64,000 nucleotides of DNA from Raillietiella orientalis (taxonomy: Eukaryota). The notes beneath the pieces were generated by a model. That model searched no databases. It had not been told where the DNA came from and saw only the letters and a program-made list of their open reading frames with translations. Shown here one piece after another: positions 16,076 to 53,650 of this stretch. Made by a program: the position numbers and the translations under genes. Location of the stretch: NCBI GenBank assembly GCA_036172245.1, contig JAYWIR010000027.1, positions 2,728,001 to 2,792,000 of the forward strand, given 5' to 3'. Every line of letters begins with the position of its first letter. Positions within the stretch are counted from its first letter, which is position 1.

Positions 16076-16145
16076 TGAAAAGGCGGCCGCCCTGCGCGAC
16101 CCCGCACGGACGCACCGCATCCTCGCGCACAGCCTCCACGCAGCC

Positions 16146-22365: not shown

Positions 22366-22401
22366 AAGGCAGCCAACCTCTGGCGCAAGGCAGCCAACCT
22401 C
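22366..22401. repeat. Short direct repeat, period 21
   Basis: aaggcagccaacctc at 22366-22380 and 22387-22401. Confidence 0.8.
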
Positions 22402-25771: not shown

Positions 25772-28700
25772 ATGGCAGTGACGACCAGGATGAAAAGTTC
25801 TCAGCAAAAATCAATATCTTTGCTGTTTTCAAAATTGCATGAGGCAATAGCTGAAGTAACAACTCCATCAAAGTTAATGATCGACAAAAAAGTTTTGGAA
25901 AGGACTTGGAAATTAATGGATAAAGTAGTCAGGTGTTGTCAAAATTCTAGAATGCATTTGAAAAATTCTCCCCCCTTTATACTGGATATTTTGCCTGATA
26001 CATATGGTCATTTGTACCAAATTTATGAAAATTATGCAGACAATTTATCAGTCCTCAGTGATGTAGAATATTTTAAAGTATTTCTAGATAATTTAAATCA
26101 GAAGTGTAAGCAAACTTTAAAATTGTTCAAGGAAGGCAAAGATAAAATGTATGATGAGAATTCATGCTATAGAAGAAACTTAACAAAACTTAGCTTGGTA
26201 TTTTCACATATGCTGAGTGAACTAAAGGCTTTGTTTCCTAATGGCTTTTTTGGTGGCACTCAGTTTCGAATAACCAAGAGTGATGCTGCGGAATTTTGGA
26301 AAAATGCATTTGGAAATAAGTAAGTTTATTCAATTTTACATCAAGATGTGCAAGCTTAGTTTCTCTGTTGCTGTAATTCATATTGCTTATTGACTGATTC
26401 AGATGGTCATGAAATGATTTCCCAGGGTTATACGTATTTCACAATTTCGGTTATACGTATTTCACGAATTTCATATTAATTGAGGAACTTTTAGATTTGC
26501 ATTTTATTTTTGGGGTGTGTTCTGTGTGCTGGCCGAAGCTTGCTCTTAGTGAATGCCATTAAAAAAGGAGAGAAACTTTGGCAAGCATTTCTCTCCAAAT
26601 TGATTTTTTGTGTTTCTTATCAAAATTTTAGTATTGTTATACAAGTAGCACCTATTTATTTTGTACCTGCTTTACTTTCTTGCAAAGTACATTTGCATGC
26701 ATGGTTGTAATATGGCTGTGGCTGATGTTTTGTTAACTATCATAGATCAATTCAACAGTGTGTCTAGTTATTATGTAACAGTGTTTTCATTGTGTTTGTT
26801 ACAGTGTTTGTTATTTCTATTTTTAAGGCAGCTGGATTTGTATATTTGATGATATGGTATTGATTATTCCTTTGGCCTATTTTCATAACGTATATATGTC
26901 TGAAAGATTTTAAATTATGGATGAATATTAAATTAATGGTGAAGTGTATAAGTGTCAATTCATAAAATTTTGTATGGAGCCTATATTAGTGATTGCTATG
27001 TCTTCCTTGATGTTTTGGGCCTCTATTAACACATGAGGACTGTGGCAGTGCTATTATTGAACCTCCTATGTATTATGCCTTTAGTAATATTTAGTTTAGT
27101 TAATTTAGCATCAGAAGTCAAGTAACTGAAAATTTTAAGATTTAATAGGTTTAGGTTTTTGCACTACATATCATATCTTGGATGGGTAAGTATCCTTTCC
27201 ATTTTTCATCATTGTAATTAGATGCATATTTCTTTGTCACTGCATCAGCAATTTTATTTCATCATCAATTGTTCTTGAAGTAGTGATATGAATCATTGAA
27301 GTTGAATAGGAAATATGAAACCTTCCTCCAATTAGCATACATTTCCCATATTAGAAGTAATTCTCTCGAACTTTTTTTTTTTTTTTTTTGAGCTGCTAGA
27401 TGTCAGTGATGGAAGATGGATGAGAACTGTCACTGTGCCATTATCGCTTTTTGTCATTTACATCCCAGTAAAAAGACAGTATGTGAACTAAAGGAGCATT
27501 ATTTATGATTCAGTTTTTCGCCAGGGACACTGACAGCATGAGATTTCGGGGGTCGTTTTCCACATCGAGAAATGTAGGCATTCCAATAGCTTGCAGTACG
27601 CATTTACGAAATCAAGTGGATGGGTTTGCGTACCATCGGTTTTTGGTTCCGTGCTTTGACAAATTACATTGGCACGAGCTCAGGAGCCTTTCGTACATGC
27701 TGACTTTCGGTGCACACTGATAAACTCGTATACGCATGAACTTGAAACGCCGATTTTTTGATGATGTCGTCAAGCATCCCTGATGGCAGTCTCTCATAAC
27801 TTCTTGAGGAGTATTGAGGGTGAGAAGACATTTCATAGGGGTTTGCAGCATGGGCCGTGGCAAATCGGATTTCCGCGCCAGCAGTATAATAAGGACGAAT
27901 GGATTTGCCACCTTGCGTGCTTCACACGTGTGGTTTTGATGTCCGCATGCCTGGGGGGTTCTTAATTGGAATCCTGATTTTATGGGAGCGCGTGTTATAA
28001 CATCTTGTTGTTTTTTCTGGATAGTATTATGCTTTCTGAGTAATTGCCTTCTCAAGTTTCGAGTGTGCTGCAGCATCGTAGCACCTCCATTGTATTGTGG
28101 ACAGAGTGCTTGGAGATTCCTCACATGCATCACACTGTGGTGGGATGCACGTGAGGAAGAAAAGGTTCTGAGCAGGTCCTAAGGAAGCTGGAAAACGGAT
28201 ATGAGGCACACACACACACACACATACACACACAAACACACAAAATAGTTTGATAAGTAGGGCAACATGAGAAGCAGCAAGCCGTAAAATATGATCGCGG
28301 ATCTCGGACAGATGAAGGAATTTGAGGCCGATTTCGAAATTTAAACAACTTTGAGACTGCGGTTCTCCATCAGGTTTTACCTTGAATCTTTAGAATCCTC
28401 CGTTTGGGTTTGTTCGAACCGACATAAAAATATTAAGCATTTTCCTAGTGGTCGGTCTCCCAGAAATGAAACCATTTTCAAAATGAAGCCTTGAGTTGTA
28501 AAATTTGAAGCCTGTGGCCTCTGGAGCTGCAAGGCAAACCAACAGAAGGCACAGCTAGGCTGAATACGTGATCAATATGCCCCCCCCCCCCCCCCAAAGC
28601 AAACAGACAAGTAGAAAGACATGTTTCGAGCAGCTAAAAACAGTGTTGAGGAAGAAGAAAAACGAAAAGAAATGCGGGGGCGTGGTATGTGTGTTTCATG

Positions 28701-31700
28701 CTCAAAATTTTGACTTGCGGTTTTCAGCTAATGTGATTGACTCTTGTGGCCACCGAGACGGCGGAGCCACTTTCTCATTGCAGCCCCGTTCCATTCTTAT
28801 GGGGCAGACGCCTCCACATCCTGTTGTCTAGCACTGGGAATTTGTCTTTCACGTTATTGCCGAGAAAAACTCACTCGACCCCCTCAGCGGAATCACTGGA
28901 GGACAAAGGGACTACGTAAGGAAACCACGTCATTGAAAGATGTCGAAAAGAGGCAGTTGAGGCTTGACGATTGAACAAGGAGCAGCACGGAACACTTCAG
29001 AAGGGTTCATTTTACCTCGCTCTGGCGAACGAGAATTGCAAGTCTTGGAAAAGTCTTCTTGTCTGCCGCCCTCGAACCGCGAAAAGCGTTCCATCCGGAA
29101 TGGCAAGTAATAAAGGTGGCTCCTGGAAAAGCGGATGTTGCGAAAACGAAAATCAGATTACGGTGCAGCTGCTACAAACGGGGCATTCCATCCACCCATT
29201 CCTGTTAAAGGAGCAGCAGGCTCGAGGATCTTTCGAGGAATCGGGCGAATCTGTGAGCGGCGGATTATCTGCCGCAGTTTGGCATTCGGACATGGGAAAA
29301 TGCATTCACACATACCTCAGCAATTTTTTTTTCCAATTATCATTAATATCGGCTTTCGTGAGTATCTATCGTGTGACGTTCCGGGATGCAAATTTCGAGA
29401 CGTGGGAAGCCATGGAATGCACGTGCCGGTTGTGGGTTTTCGGCTTCAGAGGCGAATCTTTCCCATCCTGCACGCAGGATCACAAGTGAGGGAATAGTGT
29501 CTAAGACTTGGATGTCTAAGACAATAAGAAATGTTGCTTAATATAAGTATGGAGGAATTGTTCTGTGGTTTTCTGCTTTCCAATGGCGGAGGTGTAGCAG
29601 GTGCACCATAAATCGGTTTTCTAGTAGCCTTCGCGTGTTCTCGTGTTTTCTCGTCCAAGTCCACCCCCATGGGAATGGGTGCTCCGTCGCTTTCAATTAC
29701 CTGTGTCGTGCACGTTTACAAGAACGCACGCCGATTAAGGTGATTCCTATGTGTTGGTTCCGAGGCGATTCTGTCTCATTCCCTGTTGATTGAGGGATGC
29801 ATGGCTTCCTTCATCTCTCCCCGTTTGGTTGTTTGAAACAGTGCTCTTCGTGTTCGTGTTTGCTCCCGTTTCAAACCGGGTGCGTGAGTAAAACGTGGAG
29901 TGATTAATGAAAAGCCATTCATCTTGTTTAGCCAGCAGAACTGAACATCCCGCGGTTCTCACCTGTGTTTCCCATCTCTCTGCCTTTTTCGCTTGCTGTT
30001 CGAAATATTTGCATACTGGAAAATGTAAAAACAAAAAATAAGCTTCCATCATGCACGCAAGAAAAGCATCATCAGTGTACTATTTCAGTAAATAGGTTCT
30101 TCTCAACGTTTACTAGTCTTTTTACGATTGTGCTGTGCGTTGCTTGCAGAAAGCTATGGGTGATGCAAGCTGTGGGTCCTTACCCCTCCCCCAGTGCTTC
30201 TTTCCTTTTTGTTAATTGGAAGTGTATTGCTGAGTTGACTGTACTGATCTGTTTGTGGTTGCTAGGGATTCGTATACTGTACGTAATATTTTTGCAAAGG
30301 TGTATTGCTATTTTCAAACTAGTCGGCCCTATTCTAGAAACAACTGACACGTTGGTTTTTGTTTTTGGGTGTACGTAACTAGAAGTCGCTGTTTTTCATG
30401 CACCATTTCGATTCGTGTGTCTGCACAAATGGTGGTTTCCCATATGTGATGGTTTTTGATTTAGCAAAAGTTTTCCCTTTTGGAGAGACCAGCGTTCGTA
30501 TTTAGCCGTGCAGGAGCATGAATGGTGTTTCTCCCCCCCCCCCATTTTGTTTCTTCAACGTAGGTGTATTAAATGGTGATTCAGCTTTTCCTTCTCTCTC
30601 CGAACCCCCTATTTGCAATGTTTTCTTCCACGTATCCGGATGCAAGAGTGTTTCTCCATTTGTCAGCGAATATTGTCAGTGCAATGACTGATGTTTAGTG
30701 GGAGGACTTTTTTTTTTCTGAGTGGGAAGTATACAGGAACGAGTCCATGAATTTCTGAAGAAATAAATGAATGCATGTTTAGACTTTTTGCAAACTGGAG
30801 TTGAAGGCTGCGTCACCCGCAGTTTTCAGCAAGCACTATTAAAAAGATTAAGAAATATTGGGAAGACTCTTTACTATGATTAGCACGTCAATGTTTCTTT
30901 TTAAATCTCACCAAAACAAAGGATATATGATAAAAGCGTTGATTTTTTGTTTTTTGTTTTTTCCTTTTGAATTTCTTCGAGCCAAGTGCAGTGAATGTGC
31001 ATTCACCACGGATAAGTCGTTTGTCTGTTCCAAGAGTGAACAAAACTCGGAACAAAACTCTTGGAACAAGAGTTTTGTTCCAAGTCACAGCATGGTAATT
31101 CGAAGCTGTTGCGAGCCTCGGTGATTTCGCCCTCGGCACCAAAAGTGTTCTTGGTTTGTGTTTTTGGGCTGCTGTACCAAAACGACTTTGCTTCCTCTGC
31201 CATGTTCTCCATCCGTGCGAGCAGTGGATGTGTTGCTGAGATGGCATGCGGTATTCCCATGGTCTTCTGTCGGGGTCGTACAAAATACAGATCAAAGCAG
31301 TACATGGCATGCCCGAATCGTTGCGAACGTGGGCGCCTCGGACGTTTCTGATTTTCCTTCTGTACTTAACCTGACACATTTCACCAGACGGCGTGTGTGT
31401 TCCTGTTATTTTATAGGAATTTGCACAGCTTCTTCTATGAACAAAGTAAATCAAAAAATATATTCTGCTCCACCTGTGGCATTTCCCCCCCAATCGTCTC
31501 GTTTCCTCAGAAATCATGGTTTTATCGATTCAAAAGCGATTTTTCCTCCTTGAACTTTTGTGTGAATAATTCGGCTTTGCTTCAAATTGGCGGCAGCATT
31601 CCAAATAAATCTGATTCGTAATGGATCCTTTGGTTCCACACGAATATTTTCCCTTGTTTGGACGTCGCCTGGAGCCGTCGTTTTTATCAAATAGCAACAT

Positions 31701-33506
31701 GAGAACACGAGACCATAGAATACATGGAAGATCACATTATTATGTATGTGATACATGTTCCTCCGCGGGAACAAAATTATGAAATTGCTTCTCCGTTATT
31801 CCTACTCGTCCCAAGGAAAGCTGGAAGGTGGGGGGAAGAGTCAGGTGGTCATCGTATTTTGACTTGTGAATGATTTTCGTTTGAACTTGCGATTACGTGG
31901 GGATCGGAAGCACAGAAAGATAACAGAAATGCATTGAAATGCCCACCGATTTGGTTTCCGCAGGCATTTTGCTGGAAAAAGATCCCAGTTTCCGTAATTC
32001 GCGTCATCAAAGTAGCTGCTTTCGGAAGCAATTGCATGCTCAGTTCGAAACCCTATCCGCTGTTATACATGAGAAAACGCAATCGTCAACGGAAGGCAAT
32101 GATCAATGCCGTTGCAAGCATCAGCATGACAAACATGTTGCACGAACAAAATGCAAATGTGCAGCTTTTCTGACTGGAAGTGCCCGGAAGATTTTTTTTT
32201 TTTTCTCACGGTGCAATTGTATGATTTGCAGAACTATCGTACCATGGTGCACTTTCAAAAAAGCTTTGCATGAAGTTCATCCCATTGCTTCAGGCTTGGA
32301 AGGCATGGCATTAAAGTCCACTATTGACCTGACTTGCAATGACCATATTTCCAACTTTGAATTTGATGTATTCACCAGGTATGTTGGATCTTCAACTTGC
32401 CTTGATCTTATTTGCAGGCTTTTCCAACCATGGTCTTCTTTGCTACAAAACTGGCAAATGTTAGCGGTCACACATCAGGGTTACATGGCCTTCATGACAT
32501 ATGATGAAGTGAAGGCTTTACTTCAGAAATACATTGATAAACCAGGCAGGTTGGTAAGAATATCAAAGAATATTTAATGCAAGTGTTCCAGTTACGTGTT
32601 TCGATTATCCTGCACACGATTGGGCCAATGGGCCATTGGATATGTGACTAGAGATGGAACATCCGGTTGCCAAATTTTGCAAACCATTCCCCAAAACAAG
32701 TCCTTGTGTCAGGCTCTTTTGGATGGGTCTCGCGAAGGATTGTAAGTTTCCAATGATTTGATTCAGGTCCAGTGCAGTCCCTACTCCAACAGCTATTTGT
32801 ATCCGGATGGCAAGAATTATAACCCTGATCTATCTCTGGCTGTTCAGGAGGCCCCTGAAGGTCGTATTCAAGTGACTCAGGAACAGTACGAGCTTTATTG
32901 TGAGATGCGATCTAGCTTCCAGCTCTGTAAAATATGTACAGAGCATGACAAAGATGTGCGCATTGAACCTTGTGGCCATTTGTTGTGTACTTTGTGCCTG
33001 GGAGCATGGCAAGAGTTAGATAGTCAGGGAGGCTGTCCTTTCTGCCGTGCTGAAATTAAGGGTACAGAAGCTGTTGTAGTTGATCCTTTTGATCCCAGCA
33101 GTCCCACCAGTGAACTGGAAGAGGATGGAGAGGTGAATAATGAAGATGCGTTGAATTGTTGTATTTTTCCTTCTAGGAAGCAGCTGGATGGAATCACCTC
33201 AACAACAATTTGCGTACCTTAGCACTGTCTCCTTCCCATCAGTGTGGTGTTTCTTCTGTCAGCCCAGGCAGTTCACCCGGAGCTTCACCTCTTGCCAGTC
33301 GTAGCCCTCCTGGACCACCTCCTCTTCCTCCAAAGAAAAATGCATCTCATGTTAGTCCTGCCACGTATTTGCAGTGGCGACCTGCTCCTGTGATTAAGTG
33401 AGAACTTTATTCTCTGCAGAGTGTTTCAGATCTATTGAAATTCCAGGAGAAGTTCACCCGATTTCAGCAAAGACCTGCACCAACTGGTAGTGAATGGATC
33501 CAGTGA
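25772..33506 (+). CDS. Cbl: E3 ubiquitin ligase Cbl, short form (4H-EF-SH2 TKB + linker + RING + short Pro-rich tail), about 513-525 aa
   Basis: Exons 25772-26319 (TWKLMDKVV...[16 protein letters not shown]...[11 protein letters not shown]), 32232-32378 ([24 protein letters not shown]), 32418-32549, 32592-32741 ([19 protein letters not shown]), 32793-33132 ([35 protein letters not shown]), 33177-33350 and probably 33420-33506. Alternative stop at 33401 if the last intron is retained, so the 3' end is less certain. AATAAA at 33935-33940. Confidence 0.96.
26426..26472. repeat. 23-24 nt tandem duplication in Cbl intron 1
   Basis: ggttatacgtatttcac(g)aatttc twice in tandem. Confidence 0.85.
28207..28243. 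repeat. Imperfect (CA)n microsatellite
   Basis: Seen directly. Confidence 0.85.
31026..31084. repeat. Nested inverted/direct repeat with a perfect 15-bp hairpin
   Basis: ggaacaaaactcttg (31049-31063), gaa loop, caagagttttgttcc (31067-31081), plus extra copies of gaacaaaactc and tgttccaag. Confidence 0.85.
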
Positions 33507-36500
33507 AATTCCAAAGTCAGATGGTCTTTGTGGTGCTAGTCCCGTGATTGAATTATGCGAAAGCACTGTTCCAGTAAACCCCTAACGCCGAACATAATTC
33601 TCTACCTGTGATATCCAGCCGCTTGATTTCGCTCCCTTTTCAGGCTGCTCATCTCCTTTCCTCACAATATGTCGTCAGGTTCCTCCAATTCTTTGTGGAA
33701 GATTGTAAATCAACGAAAGCATTTATCTTTTGTTATGTAGTTTTTGTGTTTTTGTTTTTAAAGGGACTATTTTTCTGCGAGACTCCATTTTAGTAATGCG
33801 CATCTATGGTAGCAATCGCAGTTTTTTCTTTCAAAGTTTTTTTTTTTTTAAAAAAAAAAAAAAAATGCAAATTACGAAACTACGAGTGACCTAGATTTGA
33901 ATATATTAGAATGTAAAGCACCGTAAAGTTGAGCAATAAAACAATTCCCTGTAATTCTGCATATTCCATCGCATGTTTGTTTTCACACTGCAAATTTGGA
34001 AGCAGTCGTTCCAGGTTTTCAGTGTGTGACCGAAAAGGTAAAAAAAAAAAAAAAAAATGGTCGTTTCCGGGAACTAGAATACACGGCGCAAATCTTCTCC
34101 GTAGCATACGACATGCCTTTGTGGTGTAGAGCAAAGTAGTTGATTCTTTAGTATCTCCTGGTGACTGTTACAGTGCCCTGCATATTTAAAACGAGCTTTT
34201 AACACAGTAGCAGTAATGTTTTTTTTTTTCTTTTTTTCTAATTTCAAATCTTGGATTCACCGCAGGCTCTCTCTCCGGGTTAAGGCTCTGCAATAGAAGT
34301 TTGCATGGGGATGTTTTCTGTGAGGGCCCTGAGACACCCTAGGGTGAAACCGCGTGCATGCTAGCTGGCAACCTATCGGCTTAATCGGCGTTTTGCAAGA
34401 GTTACTACCTGGTCAGCCATTCCACTTGGGGTGAACGAAATTGGCTCCGACGAGTGACCAGAAAGTCAAATGCGACTTTTTCCATCCTTTTGATTGTTTA
34501 CTTTTAACCTCTTCACCATATGTAAAACCTGACGGTTGTACAGCCTGGCGAGCACTGCCATCACCGATTGTGAGTAGACCGAAGCGAGGACGCCAAAGAA
34601 TGCACTCTGATGCCTGCTCGACCTACTCAGTGCGGGAACCTACTTCACAAGGCTTAGCAAATGTTTTGCCAGTGGTCTGAGAATTCACGGATTCCCAGAT
34701 TGGAAAACTTGACCTTGCTTTACTTTTCGGTATGATTTTTCCTCTGAATTATTTTTCCCTGAAATCCCGATCCATCAAGGAATGCGTTGTTACTTCGGTC
34801 CCCCAAACTACAAGACTAAAGTGTGAAAACGTAAATGAAATCGGAGTGAAGGAGTAGACCCCATCCCATCGTGACATAAATGCTAAAGATTTCTCAGCCA
34901 CATTTTCTAGTTGCTTTTCCTAACTACAGAATCAGGTTAAAACTTAAGAGTATAATCTCCATTCACATAAACGTCGTCATTCCTCAAGAAGGAACTCTTT
35001 CTTTCTCAGAGGGATTCAGGTGGTTTCACTTATTTTCAACGGAGAGTATCAAATACAAGACTCTAAAGTAGACATTCATTTTTTTTTTTGTTATGCAAAG
35101 CAGTTTCCAAGATTTTCTAGTATACGAAAAAAAAAAAAAACTGAACGATTATCTATCAAAGCAGCAAATCTTCACCGAAGTGTCACGTCCATAAATCTCG
35201 TGAAGACGAGGCTTTCCCATAGACAAGTAAAGAGAATATTTATTGATGCTGGGTACCGCAATTTTCCTGTTTCCAATGCAAAATGATCCGCAATCAATGC
35301 CAAAACAGAGAAAGGAGCTCCCACTTGGTGGTACTGGCTGGTAGTCAGTGTCAGCTTGAATTCTTTGGCGTTCTTTACGAATACAGATCTGACGCTAGAA
35401 GGAATATAGCTTCAATCTTGGTTGGAGTCCCATATAAATACGGGTTTTCTTATTCACGTTTCGAAAGACGTAAGAATCAAGTCCCCTAGACTTGATGGTT
35501 TCGTTTGGAGACAAAAGGATAGGAATTATTGTGTGGAACATGGCATCTGTTCTTTTTTTCTGGTTATTGCACGTGTATTACAGGCTAAAAACTCAGTGAC
35601 ATTATAGTCCATCCGAATTCAACATTACGACCGGTACTCTTTCAAATTGCTTTCCACTTGTCTTCACAAAGAGATCCTCGGGATCTTCTTTAGCATCCTG
35701 AGAGCGGTAATTGGTGCGTAAGCAAATATTTTCTGTGTCTAAAAGTGGAATTCGGTTTCCTTTGCATTTGACATTCCAGCGTTTGAGAACGCGGAGAAAG
35801 TTTCACGTAATGCTTCCTTCTAAAGTGTTGCAAATGCATCTTTGGTTTCCTCCAAAAAAAAGTCTCCATCCTCTCACAGATTCAGTATTGACGTTTTTTT
35901 TGGGGGGGAGGGGGGGGGGCGTAGAACAATCCAAAAGATCAAAAGAAAGATCTAGAGTCTTTGAGGATACATGTAAAGAGAAAAATTTTCAGCTTTGCAA
36001 ATCTGCAACTCTGGTTTGTCACTCAGATTAGACATTCTGCATTTTTGAGATTGAAGCAACTGAGTTTTTGATATTTTGCGAAGATCATTTTCGTTGATTT
36101 CTCCTGAAGTAAACTAGATGGTCCAGGAGACGGGTAAGTTCATCTCAACTGCTGAATAGCATTGCATCCCATTCTACTCTGTTTTCTAGAAATTTATTAG
36201 TAGCTCGACCACATTCACATGTGTAAACTAGATGCAAGTAATTGGTAAGAAAGTGGTAAAAGATCAGGAAACGAAAGACTAAATTAAATCTGTTGGGTTG
36301 CCTCTTCTTTTTAACTCATGTCGTGATTTTGAAGGTTGATCCACGACGAGAGGAGACCAGTCCCACAAACTACTTGGGAATACTGATTGTGTTGCATCTT
36401 TTCTCTCTTCTGATGTGAGCCTCCTTCTTCCTGGGAATTCTCATTCTCTCAACACTTCATCATTTGCTGTATCTCAAGATTCCAGAGGTTCAACGATGAA

Positions 36501-37698
36501 TACCGTACTGCCCGCCTTTGCAGTTGAGTTGGAACTAATCTTCGATACCTGCTCCCCAGGTTCTGCTTTGTTTCCTCCGAGGCAGCTTATGTGTGCGGGT
36601 AAGAATAAGCGATTCTTGGCTTCGTCTGGGATCAGTAGGTCTAGCTTTAGCTTCGAAATAGGCTGTTCCGGAATAGGCTGATTGGAGGATACCAACTTCC
36701 AGTGTTCGAATGTTAACTTTTCGATTTCGATCAGCTTGATTGTGACTCTCTGTAGTAATACGCTGAAGATGCAGCCTTACGATTCCATCCATCGTCCACA
36801 TCTCTTGCGAAAGTGATCAGCGTCGTCCTTTGTCCTTTGTCGATCAGCGTCCCAAGTCATTCATCTTGACTGCAACTGATTTTCTTTTTTTTTTTTTTTA
36901 CGAATCAACAGAGTCTGCTTTTTGAATATGAATTCTGAAATCATTGAATATCGGGAATGCTTTCCATTTGGGAAGCCTGACATTGATTAATTTATTCTGA
37001 TTTTTGACTCAAGATACAGAATAAATTTATATAAATCTCCTTTTCTTTTTACACGAAATGCTTCGAAATGATAATTGAAATTTTGAACTTAGCAAAGAGG
37101 AATGGGTATACTCGTGTGCAATTCTCATGTTACATTATGTCATCACTGTGACATTATTGAGACCGTTTTGTCATTCAAGACGCAGATCATAGGGAAAGCT
37201 GAAGCTGTGTACAGAAAGCATCGACTTCGTAGGGACTTTGTGAGCCAGAGTTGAGATGGACTTGATGAAATTTATTGAAATTGTTCAACATATTTAATGA
37301 TGCCAAAGTAATCTTGATGTGGATGTGGGTGCCGCCAACTGCTCTGTCGACTGTCAGGACCTGTGTACGGCCCCTCTCACTGAACGCGTGGCGTGTACCT
37401 TCGGGAAATACAATTTCCATGGAAGTGCAACGTGAAAAAACATTTCCGGTGAAGGACTACCTTCATGTTTGCAACCATGGAATTAGATGCCTTTTTTTTT
37501 TTCCTTCCCTCTTGTAAATGCATAAATGTAACGCTAATAAGTGAAGATAATTTTTGGTGGTCGTACGGCGAAAAAATTTACATAATTGTATATCGGAATT
37601 TTATTTTTAGGGAACTTTTCATCAGAAAATAATACATTACATTTGTTCACTGAAAAGCATGTTGCTCTGTGAATGGCGTTCCTACCACGCTTCTGTTG

Positions 37699-38363
37699 AT
37701 GATGACCAGCCCCCATGCGTGGAGCGGGAAGAGCGCTGTTGACACGGAAGAGGACGATGCAATTGAGACCATGTTAAGGAAAGTGGGATGTTTGAACGAG
37801 CATTACAAAATAATGGTATGTTCAAAAGTGGAAATTCACACTTCTGGCATGCATGGGTTTCTCATGATTTGGCATGCACAAATGGTCCTGAGCATTTCAT
37901 ATGATTTGCTTATCTTCACTTGTAAAGCGGACGTTTTGCAGCGTTTCCCGAATAAAGAAAAGTCTTCGTCGATGTTAATCAGCGTTTATAATTTTTATAC
38001 TCTTAGGACCGGGTTTTTAAGCGAAGAGTTAATGAACGAGCTTATCTGATAGATAAATGTGCATTTCGTTTATAAGTTTGAATCCTCAGAAAAGCTGATC
38101 AGGGAGGACTTGTGCAAAGAATATTTTCAATTCTTCAGTGTCGTTTTGAATAACTCATATCTTTCCGTCAGTAGTCAGTAATTTGTGAACTTGGTGCAAC
38201 TGTAAGCATTCTTGAAAATGTGTCATGTTTAATTTAATTTTTTTTGTACATGTAGGAATGCATGTCGGAACATAGAGATTGGAGAAAGTGCCAGAATTTT
38301 GTCAAAGAATTCCGCATATGTATGGGCAAAAATAAAAACTCAGATCCTGTGCAATCCCAGTGA
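37699..38363 (+). CDS. COA4: Cytochrome c oxidase assembly factor 4 (twin CX9C protein), about 74 aa
   Basis: Exons 37699-37815 and 38256-38363 give EEDDAIETMLRKVGCLNEHYKIM|ECMSEHRDWRKCQNFVKEFRICM: two CX9C motifs and the DWRxC signature of COA4/CHCHD8. Start could be 37699 or 37702. Confidence 0.9.
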
Positions 38364-38389
38364 TTTGCTATATTAGCCAATTTAGGGCA

Positions 38390-38913
38390 ATGGCCTTATC
38401 CACCAATGTTAACTCACATAATGAAACATCCATAGTCCCCGAACTTTCAGAAGTGCACAGACTACCATGTCACATTGATTACAATGGGCCAGCAGCAGTG
38501 TCTTCATATTTTATTGTGGAAGAAACTGTGAAGGATGAATCAACAAAGGAAACAGAATCACACAAGACTCAGGACAAACAGGAAACTGGTATGCACTAAT
38601 TAGATGAAGCTTCATATCTTTTCCAAGTCAAGGCTTCATTTCGTGGAAGAAATCTGATTGGCAGAGTTGTTTCTTTTCCCAATGAGTATGTAGGAGCCCT
38701 TTTAGAGATGCAGGAAGCGGGAGTTGGGTTAGAAGGAATCTTTAATCACTTCACAACTTGGAGCTTTGATGAGAATCCTTATGAGAATCATAGTTTAGAG
38801 AATGCCATTGATTTACTGAAAGTACTTCAAGTGGTAAGTGCAAAGAGAAGTTTGGATGGGAACTTTTTGCTTTTATCCAGTTGCATGAGGTTGATGAAGA
38901 TGGAAATAAATAA
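38390..38913 (+). CDS. RNASEH2C: Ribonuclease H2 subunit C, 145 aa
   Basis: Exons 38390-38588 (VHRLPCHIDYNGPAAVSSYF), 38628-38833 (ASFRGRNLIG...FNHFTTWSFDENP), 38881-38913 (LH...). Introns 39 and 47 nt. Motifs match the RNase H2C family. Confidence 0.92.
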
Positions 38914-38928
38914 GTGCCTTACTGTATA

Positions 38929-41055
38929 TTAATTAAGGGAGCTTGTTGGGGATTCCAAACACTCACTAGGAGGTGGGGGTAGTGAAGAGATTGAAGCGTC
39001 TAACTGATACTTGATTTCATTTTTGTCACGAGCTTCTAAAGCCAGTTGTTGCTTCAAATATATGTTGTTCTTGATATATGCTGCCACTAACAAGTAATAG
39101 TAATGCAGAGCAAATGCTAAAGTCAGGAAAACAATGGCTCCTGTACTTATAGGCACACTCCTGGGAATTTTTGAAAGTATTTCGCTTTTTTCAGTTATAA
39201 ATGCATATAATTGGCAAAAAGGGGGACAGCTTCTTGAAGGACTCAACTGCATCAAAAACATGATAACAGAAAAAAGTAGGGTGAAAAATGTTAGAAGTAA
39301 AGCCAGGGCGACATGTCCATTAAGAAGGGTGGGAGAAACACATATGGGTGGGACCAATAAATGCCAGTGAATAAGCTTGGAAAGTGTCACTGATGTACAG
39401 CAAAGTGCTGCCAGTAGTGGCATAAAAGGGGCAAAATAGAAGGTTGCCCATCCAATGGATTGAATGTAAATAAGTCCAAAAAGGTGATAATGGAGTCCAA
39501 ACAAACATAATCTTGGAAGAAATTTTTGAAACTGGGGAGGCTTGATGGCAAGACCTAAAATGTTGGCCACTACCTGTTGTGTAGTAGCCAGCATTAGAGT
39601 GTTGTAGAGGTGCTGTCCAATCCAAGTTTCCCAGCATGTGATAGGACTGCATTGTAGAGGGTCTACTTCCTTAAATAGGCAGCCAATCAGTACAAGAAGT
39701 AGATATATCCTGAACACCAGTATTCGAGCTGGACCAGTTGCTTCACCTGGGCATTCTTCCATTGCAGTGACCCAATGCGATAGTAAACATGCAGTCAAAT
39801 CCAAAGAAATCAGTGTGATGGAAGGTAGAAATGACTGTTGGTATGCAACTGATGTGCTGCTCATAGAAACAACCATGCATAAGAGTGGCACTGCAAAAAC
39901 AGCTAGTGCTGTTAGACAAACATTGAGAAACAGTTGCCATCGAAGTTTCTTCTTGCTCCACACATTCATTTCCTGTGAATTGCGAAGTAATACACATAGT
40001 TTATTGTATATTGTTGTGTTATGAAGGCCATGGATCCTAGCGGAACGGATGCTAAAAATCCATCCAGAGAAAAGTAGCCTGACACACTCAGAGCGTTCTT
40101 GCCCAGACAGATTGTGTTTCAGTGATTTATGGTAAGAGTTTATGAGTACCACGCTGATCATAAAAACAGATAGTGTAAAACTGCTTAAAATAGCTAATCC
40201 ATCATTAACATTTTTATGTTGAAAGTATGAGATGGATAAGAAATAGGTATTACGAGGCAAGATCGCCTCGTTAGTGCCCTGCTGTGTACTGCAGGATGTG
40301 TTATGATGACATGATTCGTCTCCTTCAGCATGCCGTAGCAGTGAAGTACAAAATGGTAGTATTAGTAAAATGTTCAACAGCCACAGGTAGTACAACCATT
40401 GTAAACTAGTAGAAACAGCCGCACCGTATAAGTACTGTAGCTGTTTATGCAACCATTGTGAAAACCTTGCCAAGAAGCAGTTACTGATTTGTTTTTCCAT
40501 CCACAGCAATAATTGGATTGCCAGAAGCTTATATTTTGCATGGGTGTTCAAGCGTAAGTGAGGAGTGGACTAGGTATATTACTAGGTATCAAATGTTTTC
40601 CATACTCACTCTGAGGAATTTTCTTTTCTGCCGGCGGATCGCCATCGGAGCACTAAGATTACGTAAATTGGCCAGTTCTTGCTGCACTTGGATTTGATTG
40701 TGAATCCTTCCTATACAAAAAATGGTGGTTAATGTAGGCTTATGGTTGTTACCTAAAGTCTGATCCGGAAGAGCACTACATTGTAGAAGATCTGCTTTAC
40801 AAACATTACAAAAGGGCACTTCATAATGAAGGGCTGCATCTATAATGCATGGTCATGGGTCGTTCATTAAATTTGATGAATCCACAATCATACAAACTTA
40901 CGTGAGTGGAGCGGCTCGTTTGCGATCAGTGAAAGTGACACGCACCCTGAAGTATCGGAATTTTTAGGAAGTTTTGAATGATACTTCTCATGATAGAATT
41001 CATTTTCAGCTTCTTCCCATTCCAAAGACTTCTGCCTCTGTTTGCAGTCATCCAT
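38929..41055 (-). CDS. Transmembrane channel-like (TMC family) protein, divergent, about 660 aa
   Basis: Exons 41055-40902 (MDD...WEEAENEFYHE), 40839-40753, 40710-40610 (LRNLSAPMAIRRQKR), 40569-38929 join in frame. Many hydrophobic segments, TMC signature CWETWIGQHLY, LIYIQSIGWATFYFAPFMP, PSRSCPPF, LKQQLALEARDK. Looks closest to the TMC4-8/TMC7-like type, but orthology is not established. Confidence 0.85.
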
Positions 41056-44863: not shown

Positions 44864-47800
44864 CCCCCGTTTCACGGGAGCATTATGTGTGTTCAAGAGG
44901 TTTCGGTTGCCTTCTTCCGAGCGAACAAAGAGGCCGCGGTGCCGTATACTTGGCGTGGTGGTTTCGAAGTCAGCGCCGGTGCACATCCCCTCCGCCTGAT
45001 GATGATGGCCTTTCGGGCAGCATCCGACCAGTTCGGATGATTGTGTTTGGCTTGCTCGAATCGATGCTCTCTCTGATCGCCTTGCAGGAGCCGCTGGGAA
45101 TTCCTTTCTTTCGTTTTATTTTATTTTTTTTTTTTTATCTTCCCATTTTTTTGGGTCGTATCGAATGCAAAGCACACCAACTCTTGCATGCTGTAAACAC
45201 GAGGCATTGCATTGTTCGTGGTCACCCGTGTCCATGGCATTGCAGGCATTTAAAACATTATCTTTAATTGGCTCCGTTGTCACTTGTGAGAATTTTCCCG
45301 CTCCGCCGGGGCGCATTCCAAAGTTTAACTGCTCGCGGTACTGCAAAAATCCATGGTGCCATGGTGCATCTCATCGTTTTTTTTTTGCTTTTTATTGATC
45401 TTCTGGAGGGGAGGGGGGGGGGGGAATGATGTGCAAGGAAAGTATTGATCAGAAAATCGTCGGTGTTCGCACTGCGTTAAATTTTTCTTTGTGCTCATTC
45501 GAAAATTGGGCGTGGCAGCAACATGGTTTGGTGTGTATGTGTTTGTGTGTGTTTTCCGTTTTCCCCTCGGGGCGTGCAGAGGAAGTACGGAATCGCATGT
45601 GCATTTCGAGAAAGAATTCCTATTTGCCCGTTGACCTTGAACAATGAGCGAAGAGTCAGTCAGTCAGTCAGTCGATCCCGCGAATAATTTGGCGGCGCCG
45701 AGAGAGCGGGCAAAGAAAGTACGGATCTGTCGCTTTTGTTCCGATTTTCGGCTCGCCTCGTCTTAAGCGGTCGGAGGTGGTGAAGTTTCGAAAGTCTTAC
45801 CTGCTCCTTGCGTGGCACCAGAGAGCAGTCCCTTCCCGGCCTGGGAGCGTGGGATAACACTGCGTATCACGCCCTCTTCTCACCCTGCGGATTCATCGTG
45901 GCGGTGATGCGCGCACACACACGAAATGATGGGTTTGTGTGATTTTTCCACTCGTCGGTACGGTTGCTTCCGGGGGGAAGAGGAAGGGGGGGGGGGCCGG
46001 AAAAAAAATTCGTAGCAGTGTACATCGCGTCCAGACGGCGATTCCACATGTGGCTCCCCATGGCAACAACGCATGCCTGTCCGGTATCCAATCAATTAGG
46101 GGCTGGCTTGGGGCTCGCCTCCTTTGCCTCTGCGGAACTTTTCGCTCTTGGCAACTTCTCGCGCAGCAGGAGCGTTTCCGTTCGTCCGTCTCCTGGATTC
46201 CACAGGGGCCTGCAGAGGATGCTCGTGGATCCTTCGTGCAAGATAACGCCGTTGTGTGCGTTCCTCTAGCCTCCTCCGCATCCGTCTCCCGGTCCCGAGG
46301 GGATGTTTGGCTGTGTGCGTGTGTGTGTAGTGCCCTTGCACTTGGCTGTGGCCTCTAACGTTCATCCAACAGGTTAGGAATCGTTGGCTCCTATCGCGGT
46401 GGATCTTGTGAAGCGCCGTCCGTTTCCAGGGAACCGGGTGATCCCAGAGTGCGGGCGGACGCTCCGTGGTCCCGGAGGGAGGGGTTGCGATGACGAAACT
46501 CTTCCCGGACATCTCGTGGTACTCAACGTCTTCCACTTTCTCGGGAGGGCCTCCCGGCAATGCAGCGTTTTCCAAACTTTTGCTGCCCACCCTTCCCCTC
46601 TTTCAGTGAAAGCAGCAGACTCGGGTTCCATCCTTTCCTCCCCTTCCCCCTCCCTTCTTGACCGTGGTCCTGTGATGCAATGTTGAGCGTCGTGCATAAG
46701 TCTTGAAGGTGCGATCCGGTGCCAACTAAACGGATCCGCCTTAAGTCACTAGAATCACGTGATTCGACCGATTTGGTCAGCAACCCTAATAATATGAAAT
46801 ATACATATATGTGATACTTGAAGGTCTCCCGTTGTTGCTTTGCTACTTTCCCTTGTCTTCTTTCGAACCTTCTTACATTTGGGGATGAATGCTGCTGCTG
46901 CAGGGAGGGCCAGCGCTCAACATGTTGGGAGAATCAAAAGAGGATTTCGAAAGACGCCCGATGCCCGCCGGTCGCTCTCGCCAGAAGTTTTTTTGGTTCT
47001 CTTCGTTGTGCCGGAAGAGCCGGAGGACAGGCTTCGGTTGGTGGTCACTTGATCCGGAGAAAACGTCCGGAGAGCGCTCGCACGAAGAGTTACCAGGCAG
47101 GGAAAGGAGGAGGGGCGCATTCAAAACGTTCCTCCCATTGTTCTTCGCCCACGCAGAGCCATCCTTTTTTGTCCGCGCGGAGCACCACCCTCCTCCTTTC
47201 CCCCTCGAGAATTGGTTGGCGAAACGGCGGAGGATTCCTCCTCTTTCGAGGAACGTCCACATTCTTCTCTTGGGATCGACCGCTTCCTAGCGACCGTAGT
47301 GGAGCGTCCTCCACGCTCGCACTCCCCTCTCAGGTTCCCTCGTGCTTCAGACGGGAAAGAACGTGAGGAGAGGAACACCAGGACCAGCGGACGGGACCTA
47401 GATTCTCACGGAGGGTTTCGCAAATCCGGAGTGACCTCCCCCGTTCTTGCGAGATCCCTACGGAGCGAGGGAGGAAGGGATGCGCCTTGGACTTGGTGAC
47501 GAACTCGGCGCGCCACGGTTCACCGATTTTTTTGCACGCTCGGGGACGTCGAGTCGTTCCGCCTGTGGCAGCGGCACCCCGATCGTCCGGGTTGAGCAGA
47601 AGGGTGAACGCAGTGGACCATTCTTCTGTTCACCCCTGGCGAGGTGCTGGCGCGGACAGCTGTGCCCCCCCCCCCTTTCCAGAGTCAGTGACCGAACGCA
47701 GGGCTTCCTCCGCTCGTTGGGGTGGTCCCGAGAACCTCTCGCTGCCCCCTCCTCTTCCCTTCCTCCTTGCTTCCTCCTCCTCTGCCTTTTTCCTCCCTGC

Positions 47801-50800
47801 TTCTCCGTTCACTTGTTCGCGATTTCCCGCTGCCGAGAGACGCTGGAGTTTCCGTGCACGCGACGTGTTTGCTCCCCTTCGTCTTTCAGCGCTTCTGCCG
47901 CTCGCGCATCCTGCGATCCTGTGGTGATCTCAGGTTTCAGAGAGGCTTTCTGAATGGGTTGCTTGCAAGGTGATTTCGAAAAGAAGAAGAAGGAAAGGGA
48001 AAAAAAAGAAAAACAGAAAGGAAAAATGATAACTGAAATGTAGGAGACCGCGTCTTTACGTACGTGTGTCCTGTTGCTGTGTATTTCGCGCTGCTGCTCG
48101 CGCATTTGTGTGCGCGCCCTTGGCATTCGCGACGGTCAGTGTGCGTTTCTTTGCTGATTACTGGCGTCCTTCGTTTTGGATGCGTGCAGGACTGGTAGAC
48201 GTGTTTAAATGATTTTGCATCCTGTGAGTCATTAAGGACCCTTGGGTACGCCGTGCGCGCGCGAGAGAGGGCGCGTCCTTCGCCCATCCAGTGTGTTCGT
48301 GTGTCGGTTCCGCCGATGCTGGTGCGCTGTCGGGGAACTCCTTGTAAGGTCGTGTGTGTCGGCAGGTCCTGACGGATGACCACCGTTTCGCATTTTCGTC
48401 GCGCACAACCGTCGGGAGAGTGCGCAGCTCAGCCGCTTCCGGCAGGTGCGCGCGTGCGTTCGGTCGCACGCGCGCGCGAATGCTGTGTGCGTGAGGGGAA
48501 GATGACTCCTTCCTGCGGTTGCACCGCATGCGTTTTTTCTCTCAAGTTCACCTCCTCCCCCCTTTCCTCTCTCTCTCTCTCTCTCTCCCCACCTTTCCCC
48601 GAGCCACGATGTACCCAGGTCGAAGCTGGTCAGCTCGCGGGTCGGTTTCGGATGTGACGTTGGCGCTATCTGCTCGACTCTTTTTTTTTTTTTTTTCGTC
48701 GTTTCCTCGCGGCGATGGCTCTGACAGGACTGTCCCGATGAGTTGTGGCAGGAAGCGGGACCCGCGCTGCACAGGAGTGTCGTCCTGCCGTCCTTCCCGC
48801 CTGCCCAACCGTCCGCGTGGCGTGCGTGTGTGCGGAGACCGGCGCCTGTGGGAGTGAACGGGCGTGGCCTGATACGCAATCCATCGAGATGGTGGTGGTG
48901 ATGACCTCTCAGGCGCGTAACCCACGTCGTCTTTTGACTTACCGCAAGGCAGCAGCTGTCCAGGGTCAACCGGTTTTCTTCTTCCTTTCTTTTATTGTTT
49001 GTTGTCGTCTCTCTCTCTCTCTCTTTTCCATACTGGCACCCCTGATCACTGTGCACATGTGGAGGTTTTGGCGGGCGCGTGAGCATTTCGTCAAAGATTT
49101 CATCCTCCCAATCACGGATGCAGCACGGCCCTCCGAGTCACGTGGCCAGGTTCGAAAAGATCGATTGGAATTCGTGGCTTGTTTGACGCTTTCGTTCTTC
49201 GAAAGCACACGCGCACACTCACGCACGGCATGCACGCAACCACGTCGGGTGCGACCGTCCTCTTTGCCTTCGCGAAAATCTCGTGGTCCCGTTGCCGTGG
49301 AGTGCCGTGCCAGAGTGAAGCGGCGCGCGCGCAGTCACCATTGCCGTGAAGCCCGCGGAGAAGAAAGAGGGGTGCGTGGAACAAACCGAAGATCGGACCC
49401 TCTTCCCCTCACCCTCTTCGTCACGCCTCGACGCCCGCCGCCCCGTAGAGCAGCAGCGGAAACGATCCAGCGGATGCATCCCGGCTCGAGACCATCATCT
49501 CTCGACGGGAGGGCTTCCTCCGACGACGATTTATCTCTCCGTTGACCCCCCTCCCCTCCTCCCCACGTTTCTCGCTGACCATCCGAAGCTGGACGGAGCG
49601 GCGGCTGGCTGCATGCTCTCCTCTGCAAGGGCGTCACGCGGAGGGCGCGGAAGTGGCGCGAACGCGTGCCGGAGTCGCCGCGTGCGTAGCGGGCCAGACG
49701 GAAAGCACCGCCACGCGCGGTCTGCTGCCGGAGCGGCGCGGCTCCCTCCCGACCAGGAAGGAGGCATCTGGAAGCTGCGTGAGGGGCCGGGAGTCTCAGG
49801 TTGCGGGAAGGCGCGTGCCCCGGTTGCACAGTTTCGGACGAGCGGCCCAGAGGGTCGCGGAAATGACAGGGGCGGTGCTGTATCCATGGGTGCGGGAGAG
49901 CGAGCGAGCAGCGCGGCCGGGTGGTTCAGGATCGCAGCGGATGCGGGTGGAGCGGGGTCGGTGGACGAGCTCCCCTCGAGAGGCAGAGGGGACCTGTGGT
50001 TTCGAGCACCCAAGGAGGAGGAAGTGCGACTTTTGTCGAAGCTGGACAGCCTTGGGTCATGTGTGTGGGTCGCGCGAACTCGATCCTTCTCGTGGCGTGA
50101 GACCCAGTAAATAATTCATGGCTGTTTTCGAACCCAAGCTCACTCTCCGTCTCTGCATGTGTGTGTGAGTGTGTGTGTGTGGTTTTTCATCCATTGTTTA
50201 CGCAGCCTTTTCCCTTTCGTGAGCCAATCGGAGAGCCGAAATCCGTCCGCGTTAATTTCGAGTTCTCCTCCTCCTCCCTCCCCCTCCTCCTTCTCCTCCC
50301 TCCTTCCTCAGAGTGTTTACTGCGGGCCTTTGTCACGCCTGTTTCACGTATGTCACACTTGGAAATCAGGTTCGGAGTTTGTTGGTTATTGTGAGGGAGC
50401 GTTCCTCTTTTCTGCGGAGGACGTGCGCCTCCCCCTGTGGCGCACTTTCGTGGTCGGCTTTTCCTAAGGTCCCCCCACCCCCGCTCCGTCGCCGTGTTGT
50501 GATTTTCTGGCGTCCACTCTCTTCCCCACCCCCTCTTTTTTCTCCCCTCCTCCTCCCCCCCTTCCGAGTCGCGGAAAGGAAAGAGAAGGGGAAAGGGCGT
50601 GCCGTGCTAACGGGACGTGCCCGGTCTTTTCGCTTTGTCTGAAGATGCGCGCTCTCCGTTTCGCCCCGCCGACCGCGATCGCTGCCTCGCTTCGGGTGCC
50701 AGGCGTCTCTCTTACGACGTGGCTCTCTGTATGAGTGCTCTTCTGCTCACTATTTTGGGGAGGTCGTTCGTTTTCCAAGCGGCGGCGGGGTGCTTTCCGC

Positions 50801-53023
50801 GCTTCGATTGCGTCACGCTCGCGTCATCCCGTGCGACGCGCTCATTGTTCGCAGGGAACGCTCGCGTCATCGCGATTGTTGCCCTGCTCTGCCGACGGGC
50901 GCGCGGGTTTGCCAGTTCGCGTCCGGGCGTCGACGGGCGCTCGTTCCTCCTCGGGGGGACGTGCAGGAGCGCGCTCGTCATCCTCCCATCCTGCGTGATC
51001 CGGACCCCGTCAAGCGCGGGGAGGGGGAGCAGCAGGAGGAGCGCCGTTGCCCTACTCCTGCTTTTGACACGACGCGAACGTCCGCCTTCGGCGGATGATC
51101 CAGCGAAAATCTGCCGGCTGCGAGGTGGAGAGACGCGGGACTCGTCCGTCCCGTTTTGTGCGTGCTCTCGGCCCCCTCCTCTTGCGCCACGAGTGCCTTC
51201 CACGGAGGGTGGTTTAACACCCGGGTGCTCTGGGGCGTTCATTTTAAAAACAAGCAAGCACTTGTAGGTCCATCGGCCCTACAACGTCCTAGAAGTTTCG
51301 GAACTTGCCGAGTGACCGGCCCACGGAAGTTGGTGGTACCTACCTGCACCAGATTGCATGACGCTTTCTCGGCTCCCACCTGGTCTCCGTGCTGCTTTCG
51401 TTCGCGGCAATTCTCCCACCCCTCTTCGCGTTCTCTTTTCTTCCTCCTCCTCCTCCCCCCCTCCTCTCTTTCCTCCTCAACGATCACGACGCCCGGGTTT
51501 CCGGACCCTCTGCGCATCCGCGAAGGCTCCGATCTCTTCAAGGCTCGCATGTCCCGGTGACCGCCGAGCTGCCTCCGGCCCGCCACTTCCGTCGCAGCGG
51601 ACTGGGGCGGCAATTCTGATCGCTCGGAGCGGAGTCCTGGCCAAGAGGAGCCTCCGTGCTCGGCGAAATGTTCTCACCGCGGCGGTCGCCTTGAAGACGT
51701 CGGTAGCGCGCCTTTTTCTTTGTTTTTGCGCCTTTTTTTTTTTTTTTTTTGGTTTGCTCCTCTTTTTTATTTTTTGTTTTCCTTTTTCCTCGAGAGGAGG
51801 ATGCGGTGGTCCGGATCGGAAGAGGGTGCCGATCGACGTGACATGGTCGGGCATCGCCAGGTGACGTTCGCTGGATGTTGGGGAAAGGAACTTCTCGGAG
51901 AGAGCGTGCAGATCCGGGACAGGGCCTTGGTCGCATGCCGGAGAACGCGCGCGTTCCACGCATGGCTGCGCTGCTGGCGCCGTCGCTCGAGCGGGCGTGG
52001 CGTGCGCACGCGGCCACCGGGGGTTTCACGCCCCGCCGTCCGTCCTCCGCCCACTTGGTTTCTCCGCCCGGGGAACCCTGCTGCCGCGCGCGCGCAAATC
52101 GTATCGCGGCCGATGACGTCGACGGAGATGACGTCGGCTTGCGGGTCGGCGGCGGCGGGGGAGTCGGGCTCTCCTCGCACCTGCTGCCTCCATCTCTCGC
52201 TCCTCGACGAAGCTGGGGGGCATCTCCGCGGTGTTCACTCCCGATCCCTCGGACCTCGAAAGCTCCTCAGCTGGGCATGCACGCGGAGGGTTCGATCGCT
52301 TCCCGAGCGCTAGTCGCTTCCGGGACGGAATTTACGTGTGTGTGTGTGTGTGTGTTTTTGTTTCCTCCTCAGATGGCACCGCTGCTTGCCTTCTTTTTCT
52401 CTGCACCCAGCCGGCTGGGGCGTTGCTGTGCGGGGATGCTGTCCGCTCGCTCGCCCGCGTGCGTTCGAACGCTCCGCTCTCTCGATAATGGCCCGTCGGT
52501 GCCGTCCGGAAGGGGTCGTGCAGGAGATGCTTCGCCGCAGCGACGGCAACGCATCTTATCGGACCATGGCGACGGCCAAGTTGGGGTGAATCCCTCCTAT
52601 AGGGCCGAGGGCCCGGGACAACCTGGGAGCCCTCGGCCATAAAAAAAAAAAAGAAAAATTCCTTCGTAGGTCTTCGATCCTTCCCCTTCGGTACACAGCA
52701 CGCCGGTGCCGAGCGGTGCTCCTCCCATCTGGCGGAGGTATCCTCCCCGGGAGCTGGCTGCCGGGAAAGGCAGACCGCGCCCCACATTCCTCTCTCCGAA
52801 GCGCGGCGAGATGGCGGCTCGCTATGGGAACCGGCAAAGGCGCCACGCGTAAGCGCGTGCCGTGGCGACGTGCCCGCGAAGTGCCCCGCTTGGGGAAGGG
52901 CGGGGCGGGAGGCGTGTTTGCTGCTCCCGCTCTCTTACGGCCCGTCCGCCTTGTCGGCTGCTCCGCCCGTGCGTTCGCTTCTGTGCAGCTATTCGAAGCG
53001 CGCTTCCCATCAACCCCCCGCAG

Positions 53024-53650
53024 TCCTCCGCTTCTTCCCCTCCCTCTCTTTTCCCTTCCCCCTTCCTTCCTTCCTTCCTTCCTTCCTTCCTTCCTTCCTT
53101 CCTTCCTTCCTTCCTTCTTTCCTTCCTTCCTTCCTTCCTTCTTCTCCTTCCTTCCTACCTTCTCCTCCTTTTCTTCCCCTCTTCCTTTCTACCTATCCCT
53201 CCTTCTCTCCCTTACGTCTTCCTCCTCCTCCTCCTCCTCCTCCTCCTCCTCCTCGTCCCGTCCTTTCCTCTCTCCTTTTCTCCTTTTCCTCCTCTTCCTT
53301 TCTCTCCTTTTGCTTCCTTTTCCCTTCCCTCCTTTTCCATCCTTCTCCCTTCCTCCTCATTCCTCTTTCCTTCCTTCCTTCTCTTTTTCTTCCCCTCTTC
53401 TTCCTTTCCACCCATCCTTCCTCCTCTTCCCTCTATCCTTTTCCACCGTTTCCCCTTCCTTTTCGTCATCTCCATTAGTCGTCTCTCCTTCCTTCTCTCC
53501 CCCTTCCTCTCCCCTTCTCCCTTGTCCTCTTTTTCTTCCCTCTTCTTCCTTCCCACCTGTCCCTCTCCCTCCTCCTCCCCCTCGTCTTTTCCTTCTTTTC
53601 CTCTGTCTTGCCTTCCCTCCTCTTCCCTTCCCCGTTTTTCTTCCCATCCC
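53024..53650. repeat. Long polypyrimidine/polypurine tract including (CCTT)n at about 53061-53140 and (CCT)n at about 53221-53253
   Basis: More than 600 nt of almost only C/T on the + strand. Confidence 0.95.

Follow-up and report, generated by a model that had tools for sequence, protein, structure and literature searches.

Within the window, a 64,000-nucleotide stretch of DNA, two small protein-coding genes follow one another on the forward strand: a COA4-like gene of two exons with a 74-aa product and an RNASEH2C-like gene of three exons (introns of 39 and 47 nt) with a 145-aa product (Table 1), hereafter COA4 and RNASEH2C. An initial annotation of this DNA had placed the COA4 stop at 38363 and the RNASEH2C start at 38390 on a common strand with a 26-nt gap, coordinates that were verified against the sequence, and had named both genes, RNASEH2C correctly and COA4 probably so. 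It had also pointed to an AATAAA inside the COA4 coding sequence (CDS) and to an acceptor-like aaTTTAG 4 nt 5′ of the RNASEH2C ATG, and both motifs are present as it described them (at 38331-38336 and 38379-38385). In a window that is not compact as a whole, a gap of 26 nt is a genuine peculiarity of this locus.

Table 1. Features of the COA4-RNASEH2C locus and its surroundings, numbered from the first letter of the window.
Feature	Position	Strand	Description
CBL (E3 ubiquitin ligase) gene	25773-33400	+	Exons 25773-26320 and from about 32231 on
Normal-CpG stretch	36500-38170		Obs/exp about 0.8-1.15; COA4 upstream region, exon 1 and most of intron
COA4-like exon 1	37699-37815	+	117 nt; ATGATG start; 39 codons; phase 0; donor GTATGT at 37816
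COA4 intron	37816-38255	+	440 nt; GT-AG; T8-tract acceptor ...TTTTTTTTGTACATGTAG
Three TCAGT initiator-like cores	38135, 38168, 38175 (38135-38179)	+	In COA4 intron; motif-only candidate start cluster for RNASEH2C
GTAAGC donor-like site	38202-38207	+	25-65 nt after the TCAGT cores
CpG-poor stretch	38250-40000		Obs/exp 0.09-0.29; COA4 exon 2, whole RNASEH2C and 3′ half of TMC exon
COA4-like exon 2	38256-38363	+	TGA at 38361-38363
AATAAA	38331-38336	+	In Lys-Asn-Lys codons of COA4 CDS, 24 nt before stop codon
Spacer, COA4 stop to RNASEH2C ATG	38364-38389	+	26 nt; AG at 38375-38376 and 38384-38385
Acceptor-like AATTTAG	38379-38385	+	Followed by GGCA, then ATG; ends 4 nt before ATG
RNASEH2C exon 1	38390-38588	+	ATG in GGCAATGG context, G at -3 and G at +4
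RNASEH2C exon 2	38628-38833	+	Pfam match
RNASEH2C exon 3	38881-38913	+	AATAAA 38905-38910 abutting TAA stop 38911-38913
TMC7-like last large exon	38929-40569	-	546-codon open exon; stop codon 38929-38931

Gene structure and identity

The spliced translation of COA4 carries the twin motifs C31-x9-C41 and C51-x9-C61, and the product, which probably resembles human COA4, has the form expected of a twin-Cx9C protein (two motifs, helix-loop-helix, ~70-90 aa). Identity searches with Pfam and Atlas were made with exon 2, which alone scored 25.1 bits (E 1.9e-5) against the Pfam CHCH family, slightly missing the cut-off of 27.2. Its nearest named Atlas cluster was 'cytochrome c oxidase assembly factor 4 homolog', a cluster of mostly arthropod members, at a score of 0.89 that serves as a lead only, and clusters of the CMC4 and COX23 types came close behind (0.85-0.86). 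For RNASEH2C, the Pfam family RNase_H2_suC (PF08615) matched exon 1 with 27.4 bits and exon 2 with 33.4 bits, both above the cut-off of 20.8, and the matched profile positions (2-37 and 37-65) run contiguously across the 39-nt intron. Because profile position 2 already aligns with residue 22, the gene truly begins with the ATG at 38390, and upstream of it no coding exon is missing. With exon 2 as the query, no match was found among longer proteins and a scan of metagenome contigs gave 520 pattern matches and 0 relatives; a 28-nt exact stretch of exon 1 was likewise unmatched in the metagenome contigs.

The affinity of the host was read from the conserved first exon of CBL, a search with which returned 1305 relatives. 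Every named entry among the best 120 of these 1305 was an arthropod, at 62-69% identity, and the set included a branchiuran, a cladoceran, an ostracod, a spider, a tick, a myriapod, a horseshoe crab, and many insects. No relative closer than 62-69% identity appeared among these best 120 matches, from which copepods and amphipods were absent. We concluded from these protein matches that the animal is probably arthropod-like, belonging to a lineage that appears to be without a close relative in the database searched.

Neighboring genes and CpG landscape

The stop codon of a TMC7-like gene on the reverse strand lies 15 nt from that of RNASEH2C, so the two mRNAs must overlap tail to tail and the TMC 3′ UTR is antisense through the last RNASEH2C exon; together with the AATAAA fused to the RNASEH2C stop, this spacing means that three genes are packed end to end. 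In a full HMMER search, the TMC exon showed 23-32% identity to any of its 81 relatives and is thus highly divergent, its ten best matches being TMC7-like proteins of an ostracod, mussels, a jellyfish, a nemertean, a scale insect, and others; a word-indexed search with the same ORF gave no match.

Upstream of COA4, the spacing is of another order, with about 3.7 kb separating it from the 3′ end of CBL (an approximate position set by eye). The first CBL intron spans about 5.9 kb and the short ones 42, 51, and 44 nt, and in the 51-nt intron the acceptor in use is preceded by three internal AG dinucleotides. Long A/T homopolymer runs lie between CBL and COA4 (33840-33866, 34040-34058, and 35130-35143), including a T12 followed directly by an A17. 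Farther out, the window holds a ubiquitin-like domain exon at 7540-7884 on the forward strand (Pfam Ubiquitin_2, E 6.6e-15) and two microsatellites, a (TCAG)n run at 45656-45672 and, at 53061-53381, an array of about 84 imperfect (CCTT)n copies. Two GC-rich blocks of about 10 and 16 kb (13000-23500 and 46000-62500) have 60-68% G+C and a CpG obs/exp near 1, and the genic DNA around them has 35-45% G+C. The blocks were considered as hidden genes and this was rejected: their long ORFs are without a Pfam match, there is no codon periodicity, and no repeats were found within the window. An open frame of 914 codons at 55975-58719 gives a translation that is of low complexity and rich in R, S, P, G, and A, and is probably no gene.

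The CpG content switches sharply within the COA4 intron (Table 1), and from about 38250 the depletion continues unbroken through RNASEH2C, with no CpG-retaining island directly before its ATG. Depletion is likewise seen in the CBL exons at 33000-33500 (0.23-0.35) and, taken with the sharp switch, suggests that the animal has a mosaic pattern of gene-body methylation. Invertebrate gene-body methylation gives the basis on which CpG depletion may be read as evidence against a promoter. A promoter in the 140 nt that immediately precede the RNASEH2C ATG is therefore unlikely, and the unbroken depletion through RNASEH2C favors a dicistronic mRNA.

The junction and the translation of the second reading frame

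The spliced COA4 mRNA, if extended into RNASEH2C, would present 11 AUGs upstream of the RNASEH2C AUG, and the ORFs of all of them close before it is reached, the COA4 frame 26 nt upstream of it and those of the other frames farther upstream. Re-initiation is therefore geometrically possible and leaky scanning is not; leaky scanning to RNASEH2C past 11 upstream AUGs was accordingly set aside as implausible. The sequence contexts of the two start codons also favor a dicistronic mRNA, as the RNASEH2C AUG has G at both -3 and +4, whereas position -3 of the first COA4 AUG is a T. So does the distribution of polyadenylation signals: no canonical AATAAA or ATTAAA occurs between the COA4 stop and 38905, and the gap itself holds no such hexamer.

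Other routes to the second protein fared poorly. An IRES or otherwise structured spacer was rejected, the predicted fold of 38300-38450 being no stabler than those of shuffled sequences (z +0.84; 159 of 200 shuffles at least as stable); a spacer of ordinary fold in itself favors a dicistronic mRNA. RNASEH2C is read in the -1 frame relative to COA4, a frame that is open from 38336 on, and a fusion of the two proteins by -1 frameshifting was considered on this account; T_AAA_AAC is not a canonical slippery site, however, a stimulatory fold is absent, and the product would be senseless, joining an intermembrane-space protein to a nuclear one. Were COA4 exon 1 spliced in cis to 38386, the RNASEH2C ATG would fall at offset 1 mod 3 and so, as the initial annotation had held, out of frame; such splicing yields a 47-codon dead-end ORF and was discarded.

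Several features of the junction count against a dicistronic mRNA. By the usual rule of 10-30 nt, cleavage directed by the AATAAA at 38331 would fall at or slightly before the COA4 stop. A U/GU-rich stretch lies after that stop, downstream of the hexamer, and the two elements together could terminate COA4 mRNAs ahead of RNASEH2C. Ribosomes that have translated an ORF of 74 codons, moreover, generally re-initiate inefficiently. A simple dicistronic mRNA, finally, would make no use of the TTTAG site. For the AT-rich portion of the window, the probability by chance is 0.024 for a TTTAG anywhere in the gap, 0.41 for any YAG, and 0.033 for an AATAAA within 40 nt, rates at which TTTAG and AATAAA are individually uncommon, but the motifs were chosen after the fact.

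Candidate start sites and leaders for RNASEH2C

The initial annotation had reasoned that the gap leaves no intergenic room for a promoter. This premise overlooks the 440-nt COA4 intron, which contains three TCAGT cores and, shortly before COA4 exon 2, a consensus donor. TCAGT is described as the arthropod initiator consensus in the available portion of one source (PMC10911095), and the Drosophila Inr is given as TCAKTY/TCAGTY in that of another (PMC6483594). In Markov simulations, 12 of 15000 stretches, each 440 nt long, contained such a TCAGT triple by chance, and 15 of 300 simulations did so when it could fall anywhere in 22 kb on either strand. The triple and the GTAAGC donor together point to a separate start, against the dicistronic reading. 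RNASEH2C would then be transcribed from within the COA4 intron, with A+1 at 38137, 38170, or 38177, and a short non-coding leader running to the donor at 38202 would skip COA4 exon 2 and be joined at the TTTAG acceptor (38385/38386). COA4 mRNAs would stop at their own AATAAA or read on, and the two genes would overlap while keeping separate promoters.

This arrangement, which we judge unlikely on balance although it is a close rival of a dicistronic mRNA, draws support from several sides. The three cores lie within 45 nt of one another, at a chance that is low for a stretch of 440 nt (12/15000, as above); from 36600 to 38400 the forward strand has no GTAAG other than the donor at 38202; splicing to 38386 would give leaders of 29, 36, or 69 nt, all of them AUG-free; the TTTAG site gains a role; and the normal-CpG stretch ends at 38166, right at the TCAGT cluster. 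The motif was sought after the fact, however, and TCAGT pairs are found elsewhere too, one in a coding exon of CBL (26048 and 26055) and one in a CBL intron (30072 and 30085). The consensus is one of arthropods and Drosophila and may not be the initiator of this species, and a match resembling a DPE was not seen when the sequence was inspected by eye. The donor at 38202 would, in addition, pair more naturally with the stronger acceptor at 38255, giving an intron of 54 nt, near the 39-51 nt of the short introns in the window, as against 184 nt to 38385, and a leader spliced to 38256 has four upstream AUGs. Leader exons of 25-32 nt would also be very short.

An overlap of another kind would follow if the COA4 ATG were preceded by a non-coding leader exon that could be spliced either to the COA4 exons or to 38386, such that alternative splicing produced two monocistronic mRNAs from one promoter. 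The available portion of PMC4528330 provides a precedent, in that FlyBase lists 130 genes with a common promoter and 5′ non-coding exons. At the present locus, the acceptor-like TTTAG 4 nt 5′ of the RNASEH2C ATG would suit this scheme, as would a donor-like GTGAG at 37240 and an acceptor-like TTATTTTTAG ending at 37611, both upstream of the COA4 ATG. These candidate splice sites upstream of COA4 are bare motifs, however, and the intron to 38386 would exceed 1.1 kb and skip two good acceptors. We consider a shared leader of this kind improbable.

Possible trans-splicing

Operons of the SL1 type and those of ascidians have a poly(A) signal near the stop codon, a tiny gap, and an acceptor just before the ATG. 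The AATAAA 24 nt before the COA4 stop, the 26-nt gap, and the acceptor-like site 4 nt before the RNASEH2C ATG fit this form. Under such a scheme, a single pre-mRNA would be cleaved at a COA4 poly(A) site lying at, near, or within the stop codon, and RNASEH2C would be capped by a leader trans-spliced to 38386. Trans-splicing is given for copepods and amphipods in the accessible parts of PMC7986045 and PMC4664967. These are the sole arthropod groups said in these papers to trans-splice, and, as far as the available text of PMC7986045 goes, operons had not been reported from them as of 2021, which weighs against a spliced-leader operon at this locus.

The scheme also requires a lineage that trans-splices, and neither copepods nor amphipods are found among the best 120 of the 1305 CBL matches. 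No Rfam family was matched anywhere in the window at the gathering score, which likewise speaks against it, and the other spacings are not operon-like, as the roughly 3.7 kb between the approximate CBL 3′ end and COA4 illustrates. The acceptor-like TTTAG before the RNASEH2C ATG has candidate donors in cis as well, at 38202 and 37240. We therefore regard a spliced-leader operon as very improbable and as the least supported of the readings.

Discussion

The arrangement described here can be set beside several known systems, the closest of which are found in Drosophila. According to the accessible parts of PMC4528330, 159 dicistronic pairs of Drosophila melanogaster are annotated in FlyBase. Its File S1 has six parts, and of the 41 stop/start junctions in the first of them, 19 are at most 30 nt long or overlapping, such that a gap of 26 nt falls inside the range of the annotated pairs given in that part. 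In the portion of their paper available (PMC2276209), Hayden and Bosco describe conserved fly upstream ORFs as enriched for mitochondrial import proteins and name twin-CX9C upstream ORFs at CG9865, CG30290, and CG9288, loci for which File S1 of PMC4528330, where available, gives junction gaps of 22, 18, and 19 nt. The CG9865 locus, CG9288/CG42375, and Ppcdc/CG42496 (CG30290 being equated with Ppcdc through its FBgn number) resemble COA4-RNASEH2C in that a small mitochondrial twin-Cx9C protein is encoded upstream of an unrelated housekeeping gene on a common strand, and the gaps are alike in scale, at 18-22 nt in the fly pairs as given in that source and 26 nt here. Judged by this analogy, a small twin-Cx9C cistron just upstream of an unrelated housekeeping gene is an arthropod pattern that is already known, and in fruit flies genes so closely spaced usually have an mRNA that is shared or overlapping.

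There are differences as well. The gene pair is not the same as at any of the fly twin-CX9C loci, and an AATAAA just before the upstream stop distinguishes COA4-RNASEH2C from them; the fly cases, moreover, rest on cDNA and RNA-seq, whereas ours is known from sequence alone. The Drosophila pairs with a shared promoter and 5′ non-coding exons, or with overlapping UTRs, that are described in the available text of PMC4528330 would be alike in that unrelated genes on a common strand overlap in transcribed sequence, and in having a splice acceptor, here a candidate one, immediately before the downstream ATG; in contrast to the pairs with a shared 5′ exon, the leader exon at COA4-RNASEH2C is a candidate. 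The spliced-leader operons of nematodes (SL1-type), ascidians, appendicularians, flatworms, and chaetognaths share with our locus the minimal spacing, the poly(A) signal near an acceptor (at our locus an acceptor-like site), and the co-orientation of unrelated housekeeping genes, but the host of COA4-RNASEH2C appears to be arthropod-like and the neighbors lie kilobases away. Bicistronic loci of green algae (PMC7896298, PMC11892635) likewise place two ORFs on one mRNA with a short spacer, as described in the accessible parts of both papers; they use leaky scanning, however, against which the 11 AUGs of the COA4 cistron argue here.

The initial annotation had likened the locus to spliced-leader operons and to insect dicistronic mRNAs alike. 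The insect half of that comparison gained a good precedent in the fly pairs, and the spliced-leader half ended as the weakest of the readings. Our own tentative preference, which we hold at somewhat short of an even chance, is that COA4-RNASEH2C is a compact, cis-acting dicistronic or overlapping unit of the fly type. The arthropod-like affinity of CBL, together with the spacing and the twin-CX9C pattern of the fly pairs, favors this reading; that the precedent comes from the fly, and that this animal stands within or near the arthropods, weakens the analogy.

For such a unit, we infer co-transcription, bypass of the AATAAA within the COA4 CDS, and re-initiation. Transcription would start upstream of COA4 and run through both reading frames, and the transcript would end after the AATAAA at 38905 as a dicistronic mRNA. 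COA4, a small protein of the mitochondrial intermembrane space, would be translated first; ribosomes that had finished it, or one of the short out-of-frame ORFs, would resume scanning and may re-initiate 26 nt downstream of the COA4 stop at the RNASEH2C AUG, whose context is strong. A monocistronic RNASEH2C mRNA arising from the COA4 intron could exist alongside, as at most comparable fly loci. If the dicistronic, shared-leader, and trans-spliced variants are taken together, a single promoter for both genes, as the initial annotation had proposed, is plausible and has a little more in its favor than against it.

No description of COA4 and RNASEH2C as one locus was found in the literature, including in searches with dicistronic terms; two papers mention both genes, but not as a locus. 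Nor was a cytochrome oxidase assembly factor found in print as the partner of a subunit of the ribonucleotide-excision enzyme. File S1 of PMC4528330 has no row under the gene names searched, a result that says nothing of the fly orthologues. The arrangement is also a trap for annotation, in which gene callers may fuse both genes, lose the small one, or start the second in the wrong place. Were RNASEH2C trans-spliced, the locus would be the first operon of such a kind in its arthropod group, going by the 2021 statement in the available text of PMC7986045, and of all the readings only this one, the least likely, would alter the picture of arthropod gene expression. Overall, we consider co-transcription of the two genes plausible and trans-splicing unlikely. 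If the unit is dicistronic, it would provide a non-fly example of mitochondrial twin-Cx9C proteins encoded as upstream cistrons of unrelated nuclear genes, a pattern that has no agreed explanation and that prompts one to ask how translation of the second ORF comes about.
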